A DNA stretch of 64,000 bases from NCBI RefSeq assembly GCF_044324785.1, contig NZ_CP172127.1. The stretch is one strand, 5' to 3'. The notes beneath the pieces are model-generated. The model saw only the letters and a list, made by a program, of their open reading frames with translations, was not told the origin of the DNA and searched no databases. This DNA is from Escherichia coli. Its GTDB lineage: Bacteria; Pseudomonadota; Gammaproteobacteria; Enterobacterales; Enterobacteriaceae. Position numbers and translations under genes: made by a program. Shown here one piece after another: positions 8,380 to 64,000 of this stretch. The number at the start of each line of letters is the position of its first letter. The stretch's first letter is position 1.

Positions 8380-8458
8380 GCCACTGCTTTTCTTTGATGT
8401 CCCCATTTTGTGGAGCCCATCAACCCCGCCATTTTGGTTCAAGGTTGGTGGGTTTTTT
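8380..8458 (+). ncRNA. rybB: RybB small RNA (Hfq-dependent, represses OMP mRNAs)
   Basis: Sequence gccactgcttttctttgatgtccccattttgtggagcccatcaaccccgccattttggttcaaggttggtgggtttttt matches my recollection of RybB including the 3' terminator hairpin and U-run; lies in the ybjL-rcdA intergenic region as in K-12. Confidence 0.82.
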
Positions 8459-8477
8459 GTTATCTAAAATTTATCTA

Positions 8478-37386: not shown

Positions 37387-38652
37387 ATGGCTTCTACTTT
37401 TACCAGCGACACATTGCCTGCCGATCACAAAGCAGCTATCCGTCAGATGAAGCACGCGCTGCGGGCGCAGCTTGGCGACGTCCAGCAGATCTTTAATCAG
37501 CTAAGCGATGACATTGCCACGCGAGTGGCTGAAATCAACGCACTCAAAGCACAGGGCGATGCCGTCTGGCCGGTGCTGTCTTATGCCGATATCAAAGCAG
37601 GTCATGTTACTGCAGAGCAGCGCGAACAAATTAAACGTCGCGGTTGTGCGGTGATAAAAGGCCATTTCCCCCGCGAACAAGCGCTAGGCTGGGATCAGTC
37701 GATGCTGGACTATCTGGACCGCAACCGCTTTGACGAGGTCTACAAAGGCCCCGGCGATAATTTCTTCGGGACACTCAGCGCTTCACGTCCCGAGATTTAC
37801 CCCATCTACTGGTCGCAGGCGCAAATGCAGGCCCGCCAGAGTGAAGAAATGGCGAATGTGCAGTCGTTTCTCAATCGTCTGTGGACATTTGAAAGTGATG
37901 GAAAGCAATGGTTTAACCCGGATGTGAGCGTCATCTACCCTGACCGTATCCGCCGCCGTCCGCCCGGAACGACCTCCAAAGGTCTTGGAGCGCATACCGA
38001 CTCCGGGGCGCTGGAACGCTGGCTGCTTCCAGCGTATCAGCACGTTTTCGCCAACGTCTTTAATGGCAATCTGGCGAAATACGATCCCTGGCATGCGGCA
38101 CATCGTACGGAAGTTGAAGAGTACACGGTGGACAACACCACCAAATGTTCCGTGTTTCGGACATTCCAGGGCTGGACAGCGCTCTCTGATATGCTGCCTG
38201 GTCAGGGGTTGCTGCACGTCGTGCCCATTCCTGAAGCCATGGCGTACGTACTGTTACGTCCGCTGCTTGATGATGTGCCGGAGGATGAACTGTGCGGCGT
38301 AGCGCCCGGAAGAGTGTTGCCGGTATCAGAGCAATGGCATCCACTGTTAATTGAGGCGTTAACCAGCATTCCAAAACTCGAGGCCGGAGACTCCGTCTGG
38401 TGGCACTGCGACGTCATCCATTCCGTTGCCCCCGTTGAAAATCAACAGGGTTGGGGCAACGTGATGTACATTCCTGCGGCACCGATGTGCGAGAAAAATC
38501 TTGCCTACGCGCACAAGGTGAAGGCCGCACTGGAAAAAGGCGCATCGCCGGGCGACTTCCCGCGCGAGGACTATGAAACAAACTGGGAAGGACGCTTTAC
38601 GCTTGCCGACCTCAACATTCACGGTAAGCGAGCGTTGGGAATCGACAGCTGA
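37387..38652 (+). CDS. ybiU: YbiU, DUF1479 protein (2OG-oxygenase-like), 421 aa
   Basis: ORF from MASTFTSDTLPADHKAAIRQMKHALRAQL... matches YbiU. Confidence 0.85.
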   Translation: MASTFTSDTLPADHKAAIRQMKHALRAQLGDVQQIFNQLSDDIATRVAEINALKAQGDAVWPVLSYADIKAGHVTAEQREQIKRRGCAVIKGHFPREQALGWDQSMLDYLDRNRFDEVYKGPGDNFFGTLSASRPEIYPIYWSQAQMQARQSEEMANVQSFLNRLWTFESDGKQWFNPDVSVIYPDRIRRRPPGTTSKGLGAHTDSGALERWLLPAYQHVFANVFNGNLAKYDPWHAAHRTEVEEYTVDNTTKCSVFRTFQGWTALSDMLPGQGLLHVVPIPEAMAYVLLRPLLDDVPEDELCGVAPGRVLPVSEQWHPLLIEALTSIPKLEAGDSVWWHCDVIHSVAPVENQQGWGNVMYIPAAPMCEKNLAYAHKVKAALEKGASPGDFPREDYETNWEGRFTLADLNIHGKRALGIDS

Positions 38653-39722
38653 GTGTCGTACAGCCCTTCCCGTTCCACGGCGGTGTTCCCTTTTCCTGGG
38701 CGAACCCGCCGCACTGACTCCCGCACCGCCAATCGTCCGTGCAGCAGCAGCGAGCCCACCGGAGCATCCGGGCGAATCAGCCGCTGTTGCAACATTTGCA
38801 CCGCTTCATTGCCTAGCTCATCGCGTGGCACATGCACAGCCGTCAGGGGAACATCCTCGATTGCCGCAAGGTTAAAGCCGTCGATACTCATCACCGAGAC
38901 ATCCTGTGGTACGCGCAGACCACGACGATGTAGCGCATTTACCGTTCCCGCCGCCATAAAATCCCCGCCGACCAGAAACGCCGTCGGCAACGTCTTGCCA
39001 TTGGCGGCATCCAGCCACGCTCCGACCTTTTCTTCCGCTTCTTTAGCGCTAAAACTGCTGATATTCAGCAAATGACGGTCATGGTGAAAGGCCAGATTAT
39101 GCTGACGCCATGATTCTTTAATCCCTGCAAACCGCTGCTCCATAGTGTAGCGGCGCAGGCACATCACATTCATCACCTCCCGGTGACCCATTTCAAACAG
39201 ATAGCGGGCGGCGAACGCGCCAATTAACCGATGGTCCGGCGCAATCGCCGGGAGGCGCATTCGTTCATCACGGCAGTTGATCAGCACACAAGGCTTAGCG
39301 AGATCGGCGGCCAGATCATGGATGTGCGGATCGTCAATCCCCAGCAGGATCGCCGCCTGCGTATCTGCTTCATTCATCCGCGAGAGAAATAGCGCGGGAT
39401 CGCTGTCAAACTCCTCCAGCGCGCAGTAACGCAGCCGCACTTCATGCGGCGATAACGCTTTGCTGATGCTCTGGATCACACGGTAATAAAAGATATCAGA
39501 TCGTTGGTCAAAAGCGCGTTGCGGCGCGAAAATAATCAGGTTGTTCAGCAACATACGACCTGCTGCCATGCCATCCATCACGCCCAACTCACGCGCGCAG
39601 GCCAGCACCTGTTCGCGAGCGCGTGCACTGGTATTCGCTTTGCCAGCCAGCACCCGCGAAACCGTACTCGGCGATAGCCCGGTACGTGCGGCGATATCGG
39701 CGATTTTCAGCTTCTTGTCCAT
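38619..39722 (-). CDS. LacI-family transcriptional regulator (accessory, not in K-12 at this position), about 367 aa with an unusually long C-terminal tail
   Basis: MDKKLKIADIAARTGLSPSTVSRVLAGKANTSARAREQVLACARELGV... is a LacI-type HTH followed by a periplasmic-binding-protein-like sugar domain; its 3' end overlaps the ybiU 3' end by 34 nt. Confidence 0.7.
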   Translation of the reverse strand: MDKKLKIADIAARTGLSPSTVSRVLAGKANTSARAREQVLACARELGVMDGMAAGRMLLNNLIIFAPQRAFDQRSDIFYYRVIQSISKALSPHEVRLRYCALEEFDSDPALFLSRMNEADTQAAILLGIDDPHIHDLAADLAKPCVLINCRDERMRLPAIAPDHRLIGAFAARYLFEMGHREVMNVMCLRRYTMEQRFAGIKESWRQHNLAFHHDRHLLNISSFSAKEAEEKVGAWLDAANGKTLPTAFLVGGDFMAAGTVNALHRRGLRVPQDVSVMSIDGFNLAAIEDVPLTAVHVPRDELGNEAVQMLQQRLIRPDAPVGSLLLHGRLAVRESVRRVRPGKGNTAVEREGLYDTQLSIPNARLP

Positions 39723-40016
39723 TTTGTGATCTGCCTCTAATTCGGAAATGACAGAATTTTCATGAGCAAAAAAGCCCATTCTGTCTGGCATTAAATCCAT
39801 TTCAGTAATGTATATCAGTCACTCATGGAAAAACGTGCACAAAACCCGCTTTCTTTCGCTTTTAGGGTCTCTTACTGTGAATTGGTAGAACAACTTCCAT
39901 ACAAAAATAATGGAAAAACGAACAACAAAGACTTTATTTATCAAAAAGTTAAAAGTGGTGTGACAACTCCATTCTGACGTTGCCGCACAAACCCTATACC
40001 ATTCTGTGGAGTGCAT
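39723..40016. promoter_or_regulatory. Divergent control region between the LacI-family regulator and the MFS-GH31 genes
   Basis: 294-bp AT-rich, ORF-free intergenic region between divergently oriented genes; position inferred, no operator identified. Confidence 0.4.
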
Positions 40017-41318
40017 ATGAGTCAGGGTATCAATAACGATATGACTGCCAGTAAACCGCGCCATATCGTCAAAAATCTGCGTTGGTGGATACTGGTCCTT
40101 TTTTTGCTCGGTGTTACTGTCAACTACATCACGCGTAACTCGCTGGGTATTCTCGCCCCCGAACTGAAAAGCAGCCTGGGGATTACCACCGAACAATATT
40201 CCTGGATTGTAGGTGCTTTCCAGCTCGCCTATACCCTATTCCAACCGTTGTGCGGATGGCTGATTGACGTCATTGGCCTCAAACTGGGCTTTATGATCTG
40301 CGCGGGACTGTGGGCACTGGCCTGTCTGATGCATGCGGGGGCGGGAAACTGGGTACATCTGGCGCTGTTGCGCTTCTTTATGGGCGGTGCGGAAGCCGCA
40401 GCAACCCCAGCAAACGCCAAAACCATCGGTGAATGGTTTCCAAAATCAGAACGCCCGATCGCCGCAGGCTGGGCAGGCGTCGGTTTTTCCATCGGTGCCA
40501 TGCTGGCCCCACCGATTATCTATTTTGCCCACGCTTCATTCGGCTGGCAGGGTGCATTTATGTTCACTGGCATCCTGGCGATGCTGTGGGTCGTGCTGTG
40601 GTGGGCGTTCTATCACAGCCCGGATAAGCATCCTAACCTCAGCAAAGCCGAGCTGGACTTTATTCGCCAGGATAACGAAGCGCCCCCGGTCAAGTTACCC
40701 TTTCTGACCGCACTGAAAACCGTGGGCAAAAATAAACGCTTTTACGGTATCGCTATCCCGGCCTTTATGGCAGAACCGGCGTGGGCGGTGATGAGTTTCT
40801 GGGTTCCGCTATACCTGTCCAAAACCTATGGCATGGACCTGAAGCAGATCGCATTATTCGCCTGGTTGCCGTTCCTCGCCGCTGATCTTGGCAGTATTGC
40901 CAGCGGCTATCTGACCAAACTTTACACCCGCCTGTTTGGGCTGAGTCGTGTGAACTCCGTTGTCGCATCATCGGTCAGTGGCGCATTCCTGATGGTTTCG
41001 CTGGCGGTGATGGCCTTTACCAATAACCCGTATATCGCCATCGTCCTTATCTCCATCGGCGGCTTCGGTCACCAGATCATCTCCTGCATGCTAAGCGCAC
41101 TGGTGGTGGAATCCTTCGACAAAGGTCAGATGGCCACTGTTAACGGCATGCGCGGTTCTGCCGCGTGGATCGCAAGTTTCCTGTTCTCCCTGATAATCGG
41201 GGTTACCGCAGACAAAATCGGCTTTAACCCCCTGTTTATCGCCATGGGCTTCTTTGACCTGATTGGCGCTTTCTTCCTGGTCACCTTTATTGCTGAACGT
41301 CGCGCAAAACGCGCCTGA
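40017..41318 (+). CDS. MFS transporter resembling the anion:cation symporter family (ExuT/GudP/DgoT-like), about 433 aa
   Basis: 12-TM ORF with N-terminal sequence ...NYITRNSLGILAPELKSSLGITTEQYSWIVGAFQLAYTLFQP typical of ACS-family transporters; RBS ggag 6 nt before the ATG at 40017. Confidence 0.7.
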   Translation: MSQGINNDMTASKPRHIVKNLRWWILVLFLLGVTVNYITRNSLGILAPELKSSLGITTEQYSWIVGAFQLAYTLFQPLCGWLIDVIGLKLGFMICAGLWALACLMHAGAGNWVHLALLRFFMGGAEAAATPANAKTIGEWFPKSERPIAAGWAGVGFSIGAMLAPPIIYFAHASFGWQGAFMFTGILAMLWVVLWWAFYHSPDKHPNLSKAELDFIRQDNEAPPVKLPFLTALKTVGKNKRFYGIAIPAFMAEPAWAVMSFWVPLYLSKTYGMDLKQIALFAWLPFLAADLGSIASGYLTKLYTRLFGLSRVNSVVASSVSGAFLMVSLAVMAFTNNPYIAIVLISIGGFGHQIISCMLSALVVESFDKGQMATVNGMRGSAAWIASFLFSLIIGVTADKIGFNPLFIAMGFFDLIGAFFLVTFIAERRAKRA

Positions 41319-41332
41319 GAGTGGATGTAAAC

Positions 41333-43696
41333 ATGAAAACGCTGAAAAACTGGACCCTGCACAAACAGTCTGCCCACCACGTTGAACTGCTGGTCGATGG
41401 CCAGCATATCCTGTGCCTGTACGTGCTGGAAGAAAATCTGTTCCGCGTGCTGTTAAAACGCAAAGGCGAGCTGGCGCTGGATCGCACCTGGAGCATTGCT
41501 CCGGCGCAGGATGTGCCATGGGAAGGGCGCAGCCGCGAAGATCTCAGCGGCTTTAGCCTGCCCGCGTGGACATTGATCCAGCACGACGACACCGTGGTTA
41601 TCGCCACCGAGTCACTGCGTGTCACCGTTCACCAGCCGCTGTGGCTGGAGTGGCACTATCGTAACAACGAAGGCGAATGGCTGCCGTTGGTGAATGACCG
41701 CCCGACCAGCGCTTATCTGCTGAATGCCCACGGCGATGGCGTGGCACACTATCAGAGCCGTCGTAAAGATGAACGCTTTTATGGCCTCGGAGATAAAGCC
41801 GGCGACCTGCAACGCAACGGTAAACGTTACGAGATGCGTAACCTCGACGCGATGGGCTACAACGCCGTTAGTACTGACCCGCTGTACAAACACATTCCAT
41901 TCACCATCACCCGCCGCGATGACATTAGCTTCGGCCTGTTTTATGACAACCTCAGCAGCTGCTGGCTGGATCTGGGCAACGAGATCGACAACTACCACAC
42001 CGCCTATCGCCGCTGGCAGGCGGAAGCGGGTGATATCGACTACTACCTGTTTACCGGCGAACGCGTACTTGATATCACCAAAGCCTTCGTACGCCTGACC
42101 GGAAAAACCCTGTTCGGACCGAAATGGAGCCTGGGCTACAGCGGTTCAACTATGCACTACACCGATGCGCCGGACGCACAAAATCAGTTGATGAACTTTA
42201 TCCGCCTGTGTGAAGAACATGCAATTCCCTGCGATTCGTTCCAGCTCTCTTCCGGTTATACCTCAATTAACGGCAAACGCTATGTGTTCAACTGGAACTA
42301 CGACAAAGTGCCGCAGCCGAAAGTGATGAGCCAGGCATTTCACAATGCTGGTTTGCACCTGGCCGCCAATATCAAGCCGTGCCTGTTGCAGGATCACCCA
42401 CGCTATAACGAAGTGGCAGAAAGAGGACTGTTCATCCGTGATTCAGAAACAGATGAACCAGAACGTTCCAGCTTCTGGGATGACGAAGGTTCTAACCTCG
42501 ACTTTACTAATCCGCAGACCATCCAGTGGTGGCAGGAAGGCGTGACCACACAGCTTCTGGAGATGGGTATCGACTCCACCTGGAACGACAACAACGAATT
42601 CGAAGTATGGGACGGTGAAGCACGCTGTCACGGCTTTGGTCAGACGATCGCGATCAAACATATTCGCCCAGTGATGCCACTGCTGATGATGCGAGCCTCG
42701 ATGGAAGCCCAGCAGCGTTTCGCTCCGGAAAAACGTCCGTACTTGATCTCCCGCTCCGGCTGCGCGGGAATGCAGCGCTACGTGCAGACCTGGAGTGGCG
42801 ATAACCGCACTAGCTGGGACACTCTGCGCTACAACACCCGCATGGGTCTGGGGATGAGCCTCTCCGGGTTGTATAACCTCGGTCACGACGTCGGCGGTTT
42901 CTCCGGTGATAAACCGGACCCGGAACTGTTTGTACGCTGGGTACAAAACGGCGTGATGCATCCGCGCTTTACGATTCACTCATGGAACGATGACCATACC
43001 GTAAACGAACCGTGGATGTATCCGGGCGTCACTCCGGCGATCCGCAGCGCTATTGAGTTGCGCTATCGCCTGCTGCCCTACTTTTATACCCTGATGTGGC
43101 AGGCATACGCCGATGATGAACCAATGCTACGTCCGACTTTCCTTGACCACGAGCACGACGTTCAGACTTTTGAAGAGTGTGATGACTTCCTGCTTGGTCG
43201 CGATATTTTGGTTGCCAGCGTCGTAGAGCAAGGCGAGCGCCAGCGCCGTGTATGGCTGCCAGATAACGAAACTGGCTGGTACGATTTCTACAACGGCGAA
43301 TGGTTCAGTGGCGGTCAGTGGATCACCCTCGACGCACCGCTGGAGAAACTGCCGCTGATGGTGCGTGCCGGGGCTGGTCTACCGCTCAGCAAACGCATCA
43401 CCTATGTGAGCGCAGAACAAGACGATACCCGCGAACTGAAACTGTTCCCGCTGAAAGGTGTGGGCACAACGTCCGGCCTGCTGTTTGAAGACGATGGCGA
43501 AAGCTGGGGCTACCAAACTGGTAATGCGCTTTGGGTGGAATGGGAAATGGTTTGCGATGGGGCGACCATCAACCTGAAAGTCAACGCGCGCGGGGATTAT
43601 CGTCCTGCATGGAGTGCACTGAAAGTGTCATTACCATTGGAAGAAAAACGCACGCTGCTGGTCAATGGTGTTGAAGGGAGTGAATGGATGCGTTAA
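41333..43696 (+). CDS. Glycoside hydrolase family 31 alpha-glycosidase (about 787 aa)
   Basis: Carries GH31 hallmark motifs: TWNDNNEF (catalytic nucleophile region), RSGCAGMQRY...WSGDN (acid/base region), GHDVGGF; tightly linked (2-14 bp) downstream of the transporter. Confidence 0.75.
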   Translation: MKTLKNWTLHKQSAHHVELLVDGQHILCLYVLEENLFRVLLKRKGELALDRTWSIAPAQDVPWEGRSREDLSGFSLPAWTLIQHDDTVVIATESLRVTVHQPLWLEWHYRNNEGEWLPLVNDRPTSAYLLNAHGDGVAHYQSRRKDERFYGLGDKAGDLQRNGKRYEMRNLDAMGYNAVSTDPLYKHIPFTITRRDDISFGLFYDNLSSCWLDLGNEIDNYHTAYRRWQAEAGDIDYYLFTGERVLDITKAFVRLTGKTLFGPKWSLGYSGSTMHYTDAPDAQNQLMNFIRLCEEHAIPCDSFQLSSGYTSINGKRYVFNWNYDKVPQPKVMSQAFHNAGLHLAANIKPCLLQDHPRYNEVAERGLFIRDSETDEPERSSFWDDEGSNLDFTNPQTIQWWQEGVTTQLLEMGIDSTWNDNNEFEVWDGEARCHGFGQTIAIKHIRPVMPLLMMRASMEAQQRFAPEKRPYLISRSGCAGMQRYVQTWSGDNRTSWDTLRYNTRMGLGMSLSGLYNLGHDVGGFSGDKPDPELFVRWVQNGVMHPRFTIHSWNDDHTVNEPWMYPGVTPAIRSAIELRYRLLPYFYTLMWQAYADDEPMLRPTFLDHEHDVQTFEECDDFLLGRDILVASVVEQGERQRRVWLPDNETGWYDFYNGEWFSGGQWITLDAPLEKLPLMVRAGAGLPLSKRITYVSAEQDDTRELKLFPLKGVGTTSGLLFEDDGESWGYQTGNALWVEWEMVCDGATINLKVNARGDYRPAWSALKVSLPLEEKRTLLVNGVEGSEWMR

Positions 43697-43875: not shown

Positions 43876-45471
43876 TTAACCGTCGATCCCTTTACTACGC
43901 AGGTAATCTTCGTAATTACCGCTAAAGTCAATAACGCGTTCCGGGGTGATTTCCAGAATGCGGGTCGCCAGGGAGCTTACGAACTCACGGTCGTGTGAAA
44001 CAAAGATCAGCGTGCCCTGATACAGTTCCAGCGCCATGTTCAGCGACTCGATGGATTCCATATCCAGGTGGTTGGTCGGTTCGTCCATGATCAGAATGTT
44101 CGGCTTCTGCATCATTAACTTACCAAACAGCATCCGCCCTTTTTCCCCACCGGAAAGCACTTTCGCTGGTTTTTTGATGTCGTCCTGGCTGAACAGCAAA
44201 CGACCGAGAATGCTGCGTACCGCCTGCTCGTCATCGCCTTCCTGCTTCCACTGGCTCATCCATTCGAACACGGTCAGATCATTTTCAAACTCATATTCGT
44301 GGTCCTGAGCATAGTAACCAATGCGCGCGTTTTCAGACCATTTTACGGTGCCGCTGTCCGGTTGCAGATCGCCCACCAGCGTTTTCAGCAGCGTTGATTT
44401 ACCGACGCCGTTGGTACCCAGTACCGCAAGTTTTTCACCGACCTCCAGCAGCAGGTTGAGATTTTTAAACAGTGGACCGTTATCAAACCCTTTGGTCAGA
44501 CCTTCCACTTCCAGCGCGTTACGGAACAGTTTCTTATCCTGTTCAAAACGGATGAACGGGTTCTGACGGCTGGAGGCTTTCACCTCTTCCAGTTTGATTT
44601 TATCAATCTGGCGCGCGCGCGAAGTTGCCTGGCGAGATTTCGAGGCGTTGGCGCTAAAGCGGCTAACGAAAGATTGCAGCTCAGCAATCTGCGCTTTCTT
44701 CTTGGCGTTATCAGCCAGCAGACGTTCACGCGCCTGGGTCGCCGCCGTCATGTACTCATCGTAGTTGCCCGGATAAACGCGCAGCTCGCCGTAATCCAGA
44801 TCCGCCATATGGGTACAAACCATGTTAAGGAAGTGACGGTCGTGCGAGATGATGATCATGGTGCTGTCACGCTCGTTCAGCACCTGTTCCAGCCAACGAA
44901 TGGTGTCGATGTCGAGGTTGTTGGTCGGTTCGTCGAGCAGGAGAATGTCTGGATCAGCAAAAAGCGCCTGTGCCAGCAGCACACGCAGCTTCCAGCCAGG
45001 AGCAACTTCACTCATCGGGCCGTAGTGCTGTTCCACTGGAATTCCCACGCCAAGCAACAATTCACCGGCGCGAGCTTCCGCAGAGTAACCGTCCATTTCG
45101 CCGTATTTCACTTCCAGATCGGCCACTTTATAGCCGTCTTCTTCACTCATTTCCGGCAAAGCATAGATGCGGTCACGCTCCTGCTTCACTTCCCACAACT
45201 CTTTATGCCCCATGATCACCGTATCCAGCACAGTGAACTCTTCAAAGGCAAACTGATCCTGACGCAGCTTACCAATGCGCTCGTTGGGATCGAGGGAAAC
45301 GTTACCCAACGTCGGCTCTAAGTCGCCGCCGAGGATCTTCATAAAGGTGGATTTACCACTACCGTTCGCGCCAATCAGGCCGTAACGGTTGCCGCCGCCA
45401 AATTTGACGGAAATGTTTTCAAACAACGGCTTACTGCCGAACTGCATGGTGACGTTACTGGAAACTAACAC
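43876..45471 (-). CDS. ybiT: ABC-F family ATPase YbiT (tandem ABC domains), about 530 aa, GTG start
   Basis: (M)[41 protein letters not shown]... two ABC cassettes without a TM domain; matches YbiT. Confidence 0.9.
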
Positions 45472-63765: not shown

Positions 63766-64000
63766 GCACAGAAAACCCCCAGCTAGGCTGGGGGTTCCGG
63801 AAAGCTTTCAGCTTTGAGCCAGTTATTAAAACCCCTTTTGATTTGTTAAAACACCTTGCGGTCTGGCAACTGCAAGTGTCAAACAAGAAATCAAAAGGGG
63901 GTCCCAATGGGGGACGAAAAGAGCTTAGCGCACACCCGCTGGAACTGTAAATATCACATAGTTTTTGCGCCGAAATACCGAAGACTGGCGTTTTACGGAG
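63766..64000 (+). mobile_element. Left end of an IS200 insertion sequence (IS200/IS605 family), truncated by the window end
   Basis: Two hairpins characteristic of the IS200 left end (cccccagctaggctggggg, then a stem sequestering the RBS: ccccttttgatttgtt...aacaagaaatcaaaaggggg) followed by the tnpA start; IS200 is absent from K-12 as far as I recall. Confidence 0.75.
63907..64000 (+). CDS. tnpA: IS200 transposase TnpA (HUH Y1 transposase), N-terminal 31 codons only
   Basis: Translation MGDEKSLAHTRWNCKYHIVFAPKYRRLAFYG matches the conserved IS200 TnpA N-terminus. Confidence 0.8.
   Translation, partial: MGDEKSLAHTRWNCKYHIVFAPKYRRLAFYG

Follow-up and report, generated by a model that had tools for sequence, protein, structure and literature searches.

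We report a three-gene island of Escherichia coli, carried within a 64,000-nucleotide stretch of contig NZ_CP172127.1 (the window), that encodes a LacI-family regulator, an importer and a family GH31 glycoside hydrolase, sits between the core genes ybiU and ybiT, and probably serves to take up and hydrolyse a small alpha-glycoside containing D-glucuronic acid (GlcA). Glucuronate may be the glycone bound in subsite -1, which would make the enzyme an alpha-glucuronidase, and we regard this as an even call at best. Observed here are the genes present, their families, the residues they conserve, their neighbourhoods and the enrichment of operators; substrate class, direction of transport, regulation and glycone identity are all deduced from these genomic and sequence data. 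The original prediction for this DNA recognised two open reading frames (ORFs) at 40017–43696 as a transporter and a GH31 enzyme, and the coordinates of both genes coincide exactly with those found here; it proposed that their substrate is an anionic alpha-glycoside, for example a sulfonated or uronic one. The uronic option is favoured by carboxylate-binding residues, gene clusters for glucuronate catabolism, UxuR/ExuR operators and a remodelled active-site pocket, whereas the sulfonated option falls away, only the Arg of the sulfoquinovose-binding triad being present.

The hydrolase has Pfam matches to PF01055 (4.6e-88), PF13802 (5.6e-37), PF21365 (1.4e-22) and DUF5110 (4.6e-06), and all parts of the GH31 fold are present, with the TIM-barrel catalytic domain and the N-terminal and C-terminal beta-sandwich domains. 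Neither the nucleophile, D419 in WNDNNE, nor the acid/base, D490 in WSGDN, varies among 159 relatives. On inspection the N-terminus of the translation has no hydrophobic signal sequence, and the enzyme should therefore be cytoplasmic. The nearest solved structures are endoplasmic reticulum (ER) glucosidase II alpha (E-value 1e-79) and Flavobacterium FjDex31A (1.5e-78), with YicI (3e-36) and YihQ (1.6e-31) far weaker matches; the closest entries in the PDB, about 30% identical, are alpha-glucosidases of the canonical kind (1e-80 to 1e-62). Every NCBIfam equivalog model scores under its cutoff, including MalA (305 of 800 bits), YicI (230 of 606) and PRK10426 (138 of 553). Public annotations of the gene read alpha-glucosidase or alpha-xylosidase.

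An alignment of 118 representatives drawn from a library of 1.8 billion proteins places the enzyme in a GH31 subfamily that comprises over 100 clusters (50% identity) and is marked by the motifs [QH]-L-S-S-G-Y, N-I-K-P and W-N-D-N-N-E; across 51 subfamily sequences at 30–90% identity there are 29 invariant columns. Canonical GH31 enzymes (ER glucosidase II alpha, human acid alpha-glucosidase (GAA) and MalA) share with it the fold, the nucleophile, the acid/base and the Arg/His/Trp/Phe part of subsite -1, but differ at three motifs, W-x-D-x-D-Y becoming Q-L-S-S-G-Y in the island enzyme, I-x-D-P becoming N-I-K-P, and W-x-D-M-N-E becoming W-N-D-N-N-E. Subfamily-wide, the canonical W-[LM]-D-I-[DE]-Y motif is replaced by [QH]-L-S-S-G-Y, whereas the aligned canonical relatives all keep D-x-D/E. 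None of the nearest PDB entries carries the subfamily motif, and the subfamily has no close solved structure. By these alignments the L-S-S-G-Y proteins are a sizeable, structurally unsampled subfamily of GH31.

In human GAA the sugar in subsite -1 is hydrogen-bonded by D404, D518, R600, D616 and H674 and contacted hydrophobically by W376, I441, W516, M519, W613 and F649 (PMC5653652). Mapped by motif alignment, and not from coordinates, four of the hydrogen-bonding residues are kept (D518, R600, D616 and H674 as D419, R474, D490 and H549), as are three of the hydrophobic ones (W516, W613 and F649 as W417, W487 and F523), whereas D404, W376, I441 and M519 are changed to S306, M274, N346 and N420 respectively. 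The acidic residues that stand two positions after D404 and I441 in GAA are G308 and K348 in the island enzyme, and K186, H355 and R545 are further subfamily-specific basic residues; the changed pocket positions and these basic residues are essentially invariant in the 159 subfamily sequences. The canonical alpha-glucosidase subsite -1, with its D404, I441, M519 and W376 set, is not matched by the island enzyme. The part of the pocket that holds O2 and O3 appears to be kept, and the part that we expect to face C4–C6 appears to have lost three acidic side chains and gained polar and basic ones, changes of the kind expected for a gluco-configured glycone with an acidic C6.

The transporter matches a single Pfam family, the major facilitator superfamily (MFS) model MFS_1 (2e-58), and its top NCBIfam match, far ahead of all others, is with the anion:cation symporter (ACS) family model TIGR00893 ('2A0114, D-galactonate transporter'), scoring 266 bits (4e-79), under the curated cutoff of 395 bits. 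The glycoside-pentoside-hexuronide (GPH) model TIGR00792 is not among the best 25 of the 30 NCBIfam matches listed, and there is no Pfam MFS_2 (GPH) match; by contrast, the transporter that neighbours the Peribacillus orthologue scores 480 bits on TIGR00792. Profile classification between TCDB families 2.A.1.14 and 2.A.2, suggested with the original prediction, is led by the ACS model, and assignment to 2.A.2 is rejected on the NCBIfam matches listed and the Pfam search. The prediction of an ACS-like transporter agrees with the MFS_1 match, the TIGR00893 model, the nearest structure and the resemblance to ExuT. That structure is DgoT, a D-galactonate:H+ symporter (1e-38), and identity to ExuT of E. 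coli K-12 is 43% over 414 residues, with the Y-x-T-R-N motif of the first transmembrane segment in common.

Three residues of DgoT (R47, Y44 and Y79) bind the substrate carboxyl group, and E133 and D46 carry protons (PMC6532931). In a gap-free N-terminal alignment, R47, Y44, Y79 and E133 correspond to R40, Y37, Y72 and E126, so that the carboxyl-binding Arg, both Tyr and the coupling Glu are shared with DgoT, of TCDB 2.A.1.14 (SLC17-like). The island transporter differs from DgoT at the second protonation site, D46, which is T39, and at the hydroxyl-binding Q164, which is F157; E. coli ExuT likewise has Thr at the D46 position, which looks like a trait of the ExuT branch and does not appear to exclude the protein from the ACS family. 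By sequence the island transporter is best described as a paralogue of ExuT and not its orthologue, since E. coli retains its own exuT, whose product is only 43% identical. It is 80–81% identical to GH31-linked transporters beside uxuA and uxaC in Pantoea and Erwinia, and 44–47% identical to the GH31-linked MFS proteins of Caballeronia and Sphingomonas. A homologue search with the transporter as query returned near-identical sequences only and was uninformative. We predict a H+-coupled importer of a carboxylate-bearing glycoside; unlike ExuT and DgoT, it is always paired with a glycosidase, and this pairing would imply a glycoside and not a free hexuronate.

The link to glucuronate comes from the gene neighbourhoods of orthologues. 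We compared 80 GTDB species-representative loci (one genome per species; GH31 orthologues at 51–90% identity), with neighbours counted from unbiased clustering of the ORFs; about 90 loci were examined altogether, several distant representatives being on contigs too short for context. The 80 loci span Enterobacterales, Pseudomonas, Aeromonas, Vibrio, Marinomonas, Pasteurellaceae and Halomonas, and include many Alphaproteobacteria, Bacillaceae and one actinobacterium. An acid-sugar transporter lies directly 5' of the GH31 gene in E. coli and in 77 of the 80 orthologous loci. An ExuT-like MFS gene is immediately 5' on the same strand in 48, and dctM of a tripartite ATP-independent periplasmic (TRAP) system is likewise immediately upstream in 29 (dctQ in 24, dctP in 19). 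A divergent LacI regulator is found in 40 loci, a UxuR/ExuR-like GntR regulator in 25, uxaC in 27, uxuA in 25, uxuB in 20, and a GH2 gene with beta-glucuronidase as its best model in 14. The uxuA, uxuB and uxaC products constitute the glucuronate isomerase pathway; uronate genes occur in at least 27 of the 80 orthologous loci and are absent from the E. coli island.

A recurrent operon has dctP next to a series of dctQ, dctM, GH31, uxuB and uxaC (with uxuA and kdgK). An Erwinia genome and Pantoea dispersa both carry the transporter-GH31 pair in divergent orientation to a uxuA-(uxuB)-uxaC group, which a GntR/FCD regulator gene accompanies. Varibaculum has dctP, beta-glucuronidase, dctQM, GH31, uxaC and uxuA, and its GH2 protein passes the UidA equivalog cutoff (802 bits vs 544). 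Azospirillum has a LacI gene beside GH2, dctPQM and GH31, and in Peribacillus GH31 is found with uxaC and the gene for a GusB-like glucuronide transporter (381 bits). In a metagenomic relative, 47% identical, GH31 lies between dctM and dctP in a cluster of uxuB and uxaC beside manD-like, kdgK, eda, dctQ, dctM, GH31 and dctP genes. The uronate link reaches GH31 relatives at about 44–46% identity, including versions coupled to ABC transporters. Microvirga has uxaC and LacI genes next to an ABC transporter, GH31 and uxuA, and in Burkholderia ubonensis an ABC transporter and GH31 share their locus with genes for a glucarate-dehydratase-like protein and an NAD-dependent oxidoreductase, a context that suggests an oxidative uronate route. 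Five types of transporter accompany the enzyme: ACS-MFS, TRAP, GusB-like GPH, a RhiT-annotated type in Francisella, and ABC. The first four families are typical for acidic substrates, and two of the ABC versions stand beside uronate genes. The TRAP binding protein has as nearest structures a group of TRAP solute-binding proteins from the Enzyme Function Initiative, presumably hexuronate complexes. The enzyme has uronate genes beside it in Proteobacteria, Firmicutes and Actinobacteria alike, and by this neighbourhood evidence the E. coli enzyme falls in the LfaA-type, glucuronate-linked clade.

GH2 genes share loci with GH31 among the 80 species and in Azospirillum and Sphingomonas plasmids, for example at L074 4377–6191 (-), L090 6304–8109 (+), L097 4000–5844 and L101 15296–17155. 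One locus-sharing GH2 protein carries a GGNKKG stretch, which we take to resemble the carboxylate-binding N-K motif of E. coli beta-glucuronidase. These loci suggest either that both anomers are handled or that digestion is sequential. Other contexts hint at the possible partner product. In Caballeronia sp. NK8 plasmid pNK83 (L099 7690–15763), an ExuT-like MFS (44%), GH31 and a porin lie beside glpK, glpD and a DeoR regulator, which hints at a glycerol aglycone (alpha-glucuronosyl-glycerol) in some lineages or at coincidence, and in Sphingomonas the MFS-GH31 pair is surrounded by TonB receptors, a beta-xylosidase-type GH43 and GH2. An alpha/beta-hydrolase at the Sphingomonas locus was considered as a glucuronoyl esterase and rejected, Pfam matching a generic hydrolase only. 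Inositol oxygenase, which makes glucuronate from myo-inositol, is encoded in Francisella sp. TX07-7308 in a 'glucuronate metabolism' operon (F7308_1388–1396). This operon also contains a 776-aa 'alpha-glucosidase', a RhiT-like transporter and the genes uxuB, uxuA, kdgK, kdgA and uxaC (PMC3479022). The oxygenase would fit a glucuronosyl-inositol substrate, and the 'alpha-glucosidase' is a candidate member of the subfamily.

Of 78 loci, 33 have a UxuR/ExuR-type palindrome, TTGGTnnACCAA, in the 400 bp upstream of the operon's first gene, where about 2.8 would be expected from the loci's own background; 23 of the 78 have exact boxes (about 1.0 expected) and 10 more have boxes with one mismatch. 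Among them are LacI-type loci in Serratia, Hafnia, Yersinia and Budvicia. The equivalent E. coli box, TTGGTAGAACAA at 39882–39893, has one mismatch to TTGGTnnACCAA and overlaps a -35 element; it may tie the operon weakly to the hexuronate regulon or be the relic of such a tie. Matches to the UxuR/ExuR box, exact or with one mismatch, were also seen inside the GH31 gene near +1300 in four loci (L035, L039, L048 and L066), at a conserved position that encodes G-F-G-K-P-I and whose equivalent in the window is near 42630. These are probably a coding coincidence, and they advise caution in operator scans.

In E. coli the only sigma-70-like site on the + strand of the divergent region (39780–40016) has its -35 hexamer TTGGTA at 39882–39887 and its -10 hexamer AATAAT at 39906–39911, and the number of sites found by the promoter scan in this region is not above chance. 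Two direct copies of ATGGAAAAACG are present in the same region, at 39825–39835 and 39910–39920, the second overlapping the predicted -10 of the transporter promoter; these repeats were not found in the orthologous intergenic regions of other genera. A palindrome that is a candidate LacI operator, ATGAAAAnnTTTTCAT, recurs in 16–23 of 40 orthologous intergenic regions. Its best E. coli match, with two mismatches, is at 39748–39763, which falls within the regulator gene at its annotated 5' end, and such matches are not above chance in the window. A search of the intergenic regions for inverted repeats at default stringency found none. The regulator itself matches the LacI-family NCBIfam models for RbsR, CytR and PurR, all under cutoff.

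These observations are consistent with a pathway in which the ExuT-like symporter would import a small alpha-glycoside by recognising the carboxylate of D-glucuronic acid, and the cytoplasmic, retaining GH31 enzyme would cleave it to D-glucuronate and a second product. The core E. coli enzymes UxaC, UxuB and UxuA would then convert the released glucuronate to 2-keto-3-deoxygluconate (KDG). The divergent LacI-family repressor would keep the operon off until substrate or product is present, and in many relatives the hexuronate regulators UxuR/ExuR may also take part. Candidate substrates are xylan-derived aldouronic acids (GlcA or 4-O-methyl-GlcA linked alpha-1,2 to xylose), the alpha-glucuronosyl-glycerol of glucuronosyl-diacylglycerol lipids, and the GlcA-alpha-1,2-inositol found in sphingolipids of plants and fungi.

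Several points weigh against this interpretation. No uronate gene adjoins the island in E. coli itself, and boxes of the TTGGTAGAACAA type are not significant in the 64-kb window, with 2 matches vs 1.86 expected. The TRAP and MFS partners resemble carriers of free hexuronates and may import only the monosaccharide. Roseomonas and a 40%-identical relative have sugar ABC transporters and no nearby uronate genes, and with some members in such uronate-free contexts the subfamily pocket may not be uronate-specific. The residues that are specific to the uronate clade (R123, H222, Q304, H543 and others) are not clearly in subsite -1; they are compatible with glucuronate in subsite +1, and are ambiguous as to whether it is glycone or aglycone. 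The assignment of the pocket is drawn from motif alignment. A literature search of limited reach found no biochemical or structural study of any member of the subfamily.

Glucuronate could instead be the aglycone, such that GH31 would remove a neutral alpha-sugar (glucose, xylose, mannose or N-acetylglucosamine) from X-alpha-GlcA or X-alpha-GlcA-beta-Y and a GH2 beta-glucuronidase would then free the glucuronate. Sequential exo-digestion of this kind fits the beta-glucuronidase-like GH2 genes in 14 of the 80 loci and in Azospirillum, Sphingomonas and Varibaculum; the clade-specific residues are mostly outside the mapped -1 positions, and subfamily members in neutral-looking contexts have identical -1 residues. 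However, replacement of a canonical -1 Asp and three hydrophobic contacts throughout the subfamily would be unexpected for an ordinary glucose or xylose glycone, no GH2 gene adjoins the enterobacterial, Pseudomonas or Erwinia loci, and ExuT-like MFS, GusB-like GPH and TRAP carriers generally suit mono- and disaccharides better than trisaccharides. We consider this arrangement, though the main rival, unlikely. Glucuronate as the glycone is favoured on three counts: the subfamily as a whole has altered canonical -1 contacts, a GusB-like glucuronide carrier is among the transport partners, and the beta-glucuronidase genes at the loci would fit the handling of both anomers of imported glucuronides. 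The island enzyme might then be the first GH31 alpha-glucuronidase, a retaining glycosidase whose subfamily-invariant Ser/Asn/Lys/Asn pocket would recognise the C6 carboxylate and which would work with a dedicated ExuT-like permease, a proposal that we hold tentatively, at a little short of an even chance.

Very improbable, too, is a neutral alpha-glucosidase or alpha-xylosidase of the ordinary kind, with an ACS-type transporter that has drifted to a neutral disaccharide and an incidental association with uronate genes. Alpha-glucosidases do head the NCBIfam and PDB matches (MalA with 305 bits, ER glucosidase II with 1e-79), public annotations read alpha-glucosidase or alpha-xylosidase, and the E. 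coli, Serratia and Cronobacter loci hold regulator, transporter and hydrolase alone. Set against this, all family matches are under curated cutoffs, the canonical sugar-binding Asp is missing, the carboxylate-binding triad of the transporter is intact, four of the five transporter types are typical of acidic substrates, uronate genes recur across three phyla, and UxuR/ExuR operators are enriched upstream of the operon. A sulfoquinovosidase-like enzyme acting on a sulfonated alpha-glycoside is scarcely credible. YihQ (GH31_13), with YihO/YihP, does offer a likeness: it too is a retaining member of GH31, its substrate is an anionic alpha-glucoside modified at position 6, and it is encoded beside an anionic-sugar importer and feeds a dedicated catabolic route. 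The sulfoquinovosidase recognition motif Q/E-R-W-Y comprises Q288, R301, W304 and Y508 of YihQ (PMC12780224). R316 of the island enzyme aligns with R301, but an Arg at this position is also found in non-sulfoquinovosidase GH31 enzymes such as glucosidase II; W304 and Y508 are replaced by F319 and F523, leaving the motif incomplete. Q304 may align with Q288, in an alignment that is ambiguous by one residue. The check for the full Arg/Trp/Tyr sulfonate-binding triad, put forward with the original prediction, thus returned the Arg alone. YihQ is a distant match (1.6e-31, 25% identity), and sulfoglycolysis genes are in none of the approximately 90 loci examined, whereas glucuronate genes are present; the missing W304/Y508 equivalents and the lack of sulfoglycolysis genes at any locus led us to reject a sulfoquinovosidase. 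The catabolic route linked to the island-type GH31 is that of glucuronate and not sulfoglycolysis, and the YihQ system has a GPH transporter where the island has an ACS-type MFS. The contrast that had been drawn with characterised E. coli GH31 loci holds in this respect, yihQ adjoining yihO and yihP in K-12.

A functional parallel is the gus (uid) system of UidA (GH2) and UidB/GusB, in which an intact glucuronide is imported and hydrolysed in the cytoplasm and the glucuronate passes to UxaC/UxuAB. Genes for UidA-like proteins occur at GH31 loci in many species, and in Peribacillus the GH31 gene is preceded by one for a GusB-like transporter. The systems differ in enzyme family (GH2 vs GH31) and anomeric specificity, GH31 enzymes acting on alpha-linkages, as well as in the family of the E. 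coli transporter and in the LacI-type regulator of the island. If glucuronate is the glycone, the island enzyme would resemble the known alpha-glucuronidases of GH67, GH115 and GH4 in releasing GlcA or its methyl derivative from alpha-glucuronides such as aldouronic acids, and intracellular GH67 and GH4 enzymes also occur in uronate clusters. These families are unrelated to it in sequence, however, and Pfam detects only GH31 domains in the island enzyme; GH31 enzymes use retaining double displacement, whereas GH67 and GH115 are inverting and GH4 is NAD-dependent. To our knowledge, no alpha-glucuronidase or other uronate-directed activity is listed for GH31 in CAZy, and our literature search found no report of one.

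A comparative genomics study placed a cytoplasmic GH31 protein, LfaA, under glucuronate utilisation in a kdgK-uxaC-uxuB-lfaA-uxuA cluster, and its authors speculated that LfaA hydrolyses imported glucuronides (PMC5507952). This matches the pattern seen for orthologues of the E. coli gene, a GH31 gene in a glucuronate-gene neighbourhood, although LfaA was predicted in passing for a Rhodobacteraceae genome, the likeness seen to the E. coli gene is one of neighbourhood, and the name and EC number given are still 'alpha-glucosidase, 3.2.1.20'. We found no enzymology, active-site analysis, E. coli island or ExuT-like transporter in that paper (PMC5507952). The module is a GH31/ACS-transporter pairing with a probable new substrate class, predicted before but uncharacterised.

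The species representative of Enterobacter asburiae carries the locus (L015). E. asburiae JDR-1 reportedly ferments methylglucuronoxylose, a xylan-derived aldobiuronate, whose hydrolysis is said to be intracellular; if the island enzyme is an alpha-glucuronidase, the island would supply the missing transporter and intracellular enzyme. It would also provide E. coli and many other bacteria with an alpha-glucuronide system parallel to the beta-glucuronide gus system, give a role to a GH31 subfamily that is large, structurally unsampled and known from gut, plant, soil and marine habitats, with members in Proteobacteria, Firmicutes and Actinobacteria, and give a second independent GH31 case, after the sulfoquinovosidases, of anionic C6 recognition, by different residues. 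Once the substrate is defined, widely used labels of 'alpha-glucosidase' and 'alpha-xylosidase' could be corrected, an E. coli trait that varies between strains and can be transferred on plasmids would be explained, and glucuronate catabolism, which as a nutrient route has been linked to colonisation of the gut (PMC10990124), would gain a new point of entry. The transporter and hydrolase might also form a two-gene cassette for fermenting the acid-resistant aldouronates of hemicellulose hydrolysates.

Features of the island and its flanks are listed in Table 1; the names lfaA, lfaT and lfaR come from regulon databases.

Table 1. Coordinates of the island and its flanking genes in the window.
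Feature	Coordinates	Strand	Basis
ybiU, core-genome left flank of island	37387–38652	+	
LacI-family transcriptional regulator ('LfaR'-type, local repressor candidate)	38619–39779	-	ORF list and RefSeq coding sequence
Divergent regulatory region, regulator/transporter	39780–40016		
ExuT-like MFS transporter, anion:cation symporter type ('LfaT'-type), 433 aa	40017–41318	+	
GH31 glycoside hydrolase ('LfaA'-type), 787 aa	41333–43696	+	
ybiT (ABC-F ATPase), core-genome right flank of island	43876–45471	-	

The transporter gene starts with ATG, with GGAG 5 nt 5' of the start, and the GH31 gene begins 14 nt downstream of it on the same strand. RefSeq coding sequences for regulator, transporter and GH31 match in identical E. 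coli loci (for the regulator, L001 12603–13763, offset +26016). In K-12, ybiU directly adjoins ybiT with nothing inserted, and the island is absent. The 3' ends of ybiU (+) and the LacI regulator gene (-) overlap by 34 bp (38619–38652), and the left boundary of the island is therefore inside the ybiU stop region and not in an intergenic gap. E. coli carries both uxaC and exuT elsewhere, with exuT adjoining uxaC. As in E. coli, the Serratia and Cronobacter loci consist of the three genes only.

Among 5426 complete E. coli genomes, 577 have the island segment with at least 90% identity, about one strain in 10, and it is always chromosomal within that collection. A diverged allele (about 85% amino-acid identity) with the same LacI-MFS-GH31 genes is carried on E. 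coli plasmid pCD90-1-1 (NZ_CP050048.1; L103 4332–9382), an IncI-gamma/K1 mobilizable plasmid, where the module lies between dsbC-family and ssb/trbC backbone genes, and related GH31 copies are found on plasmids of E. albertii and Klebsiella pneumoniae. These plasmid-borne copies mean that the trait is horizontally mobile, and the island is an accessory, horizontally mobile module. Two core features of the window that are unrelated to the island were identified by Rfam matches well over the gathering threshold, the small RNA RybB at 8383–8461 (+; 104.8 bits) and the Hfq-binding RNA STnc490 at 63774–63897 (+; 146.4 bits).

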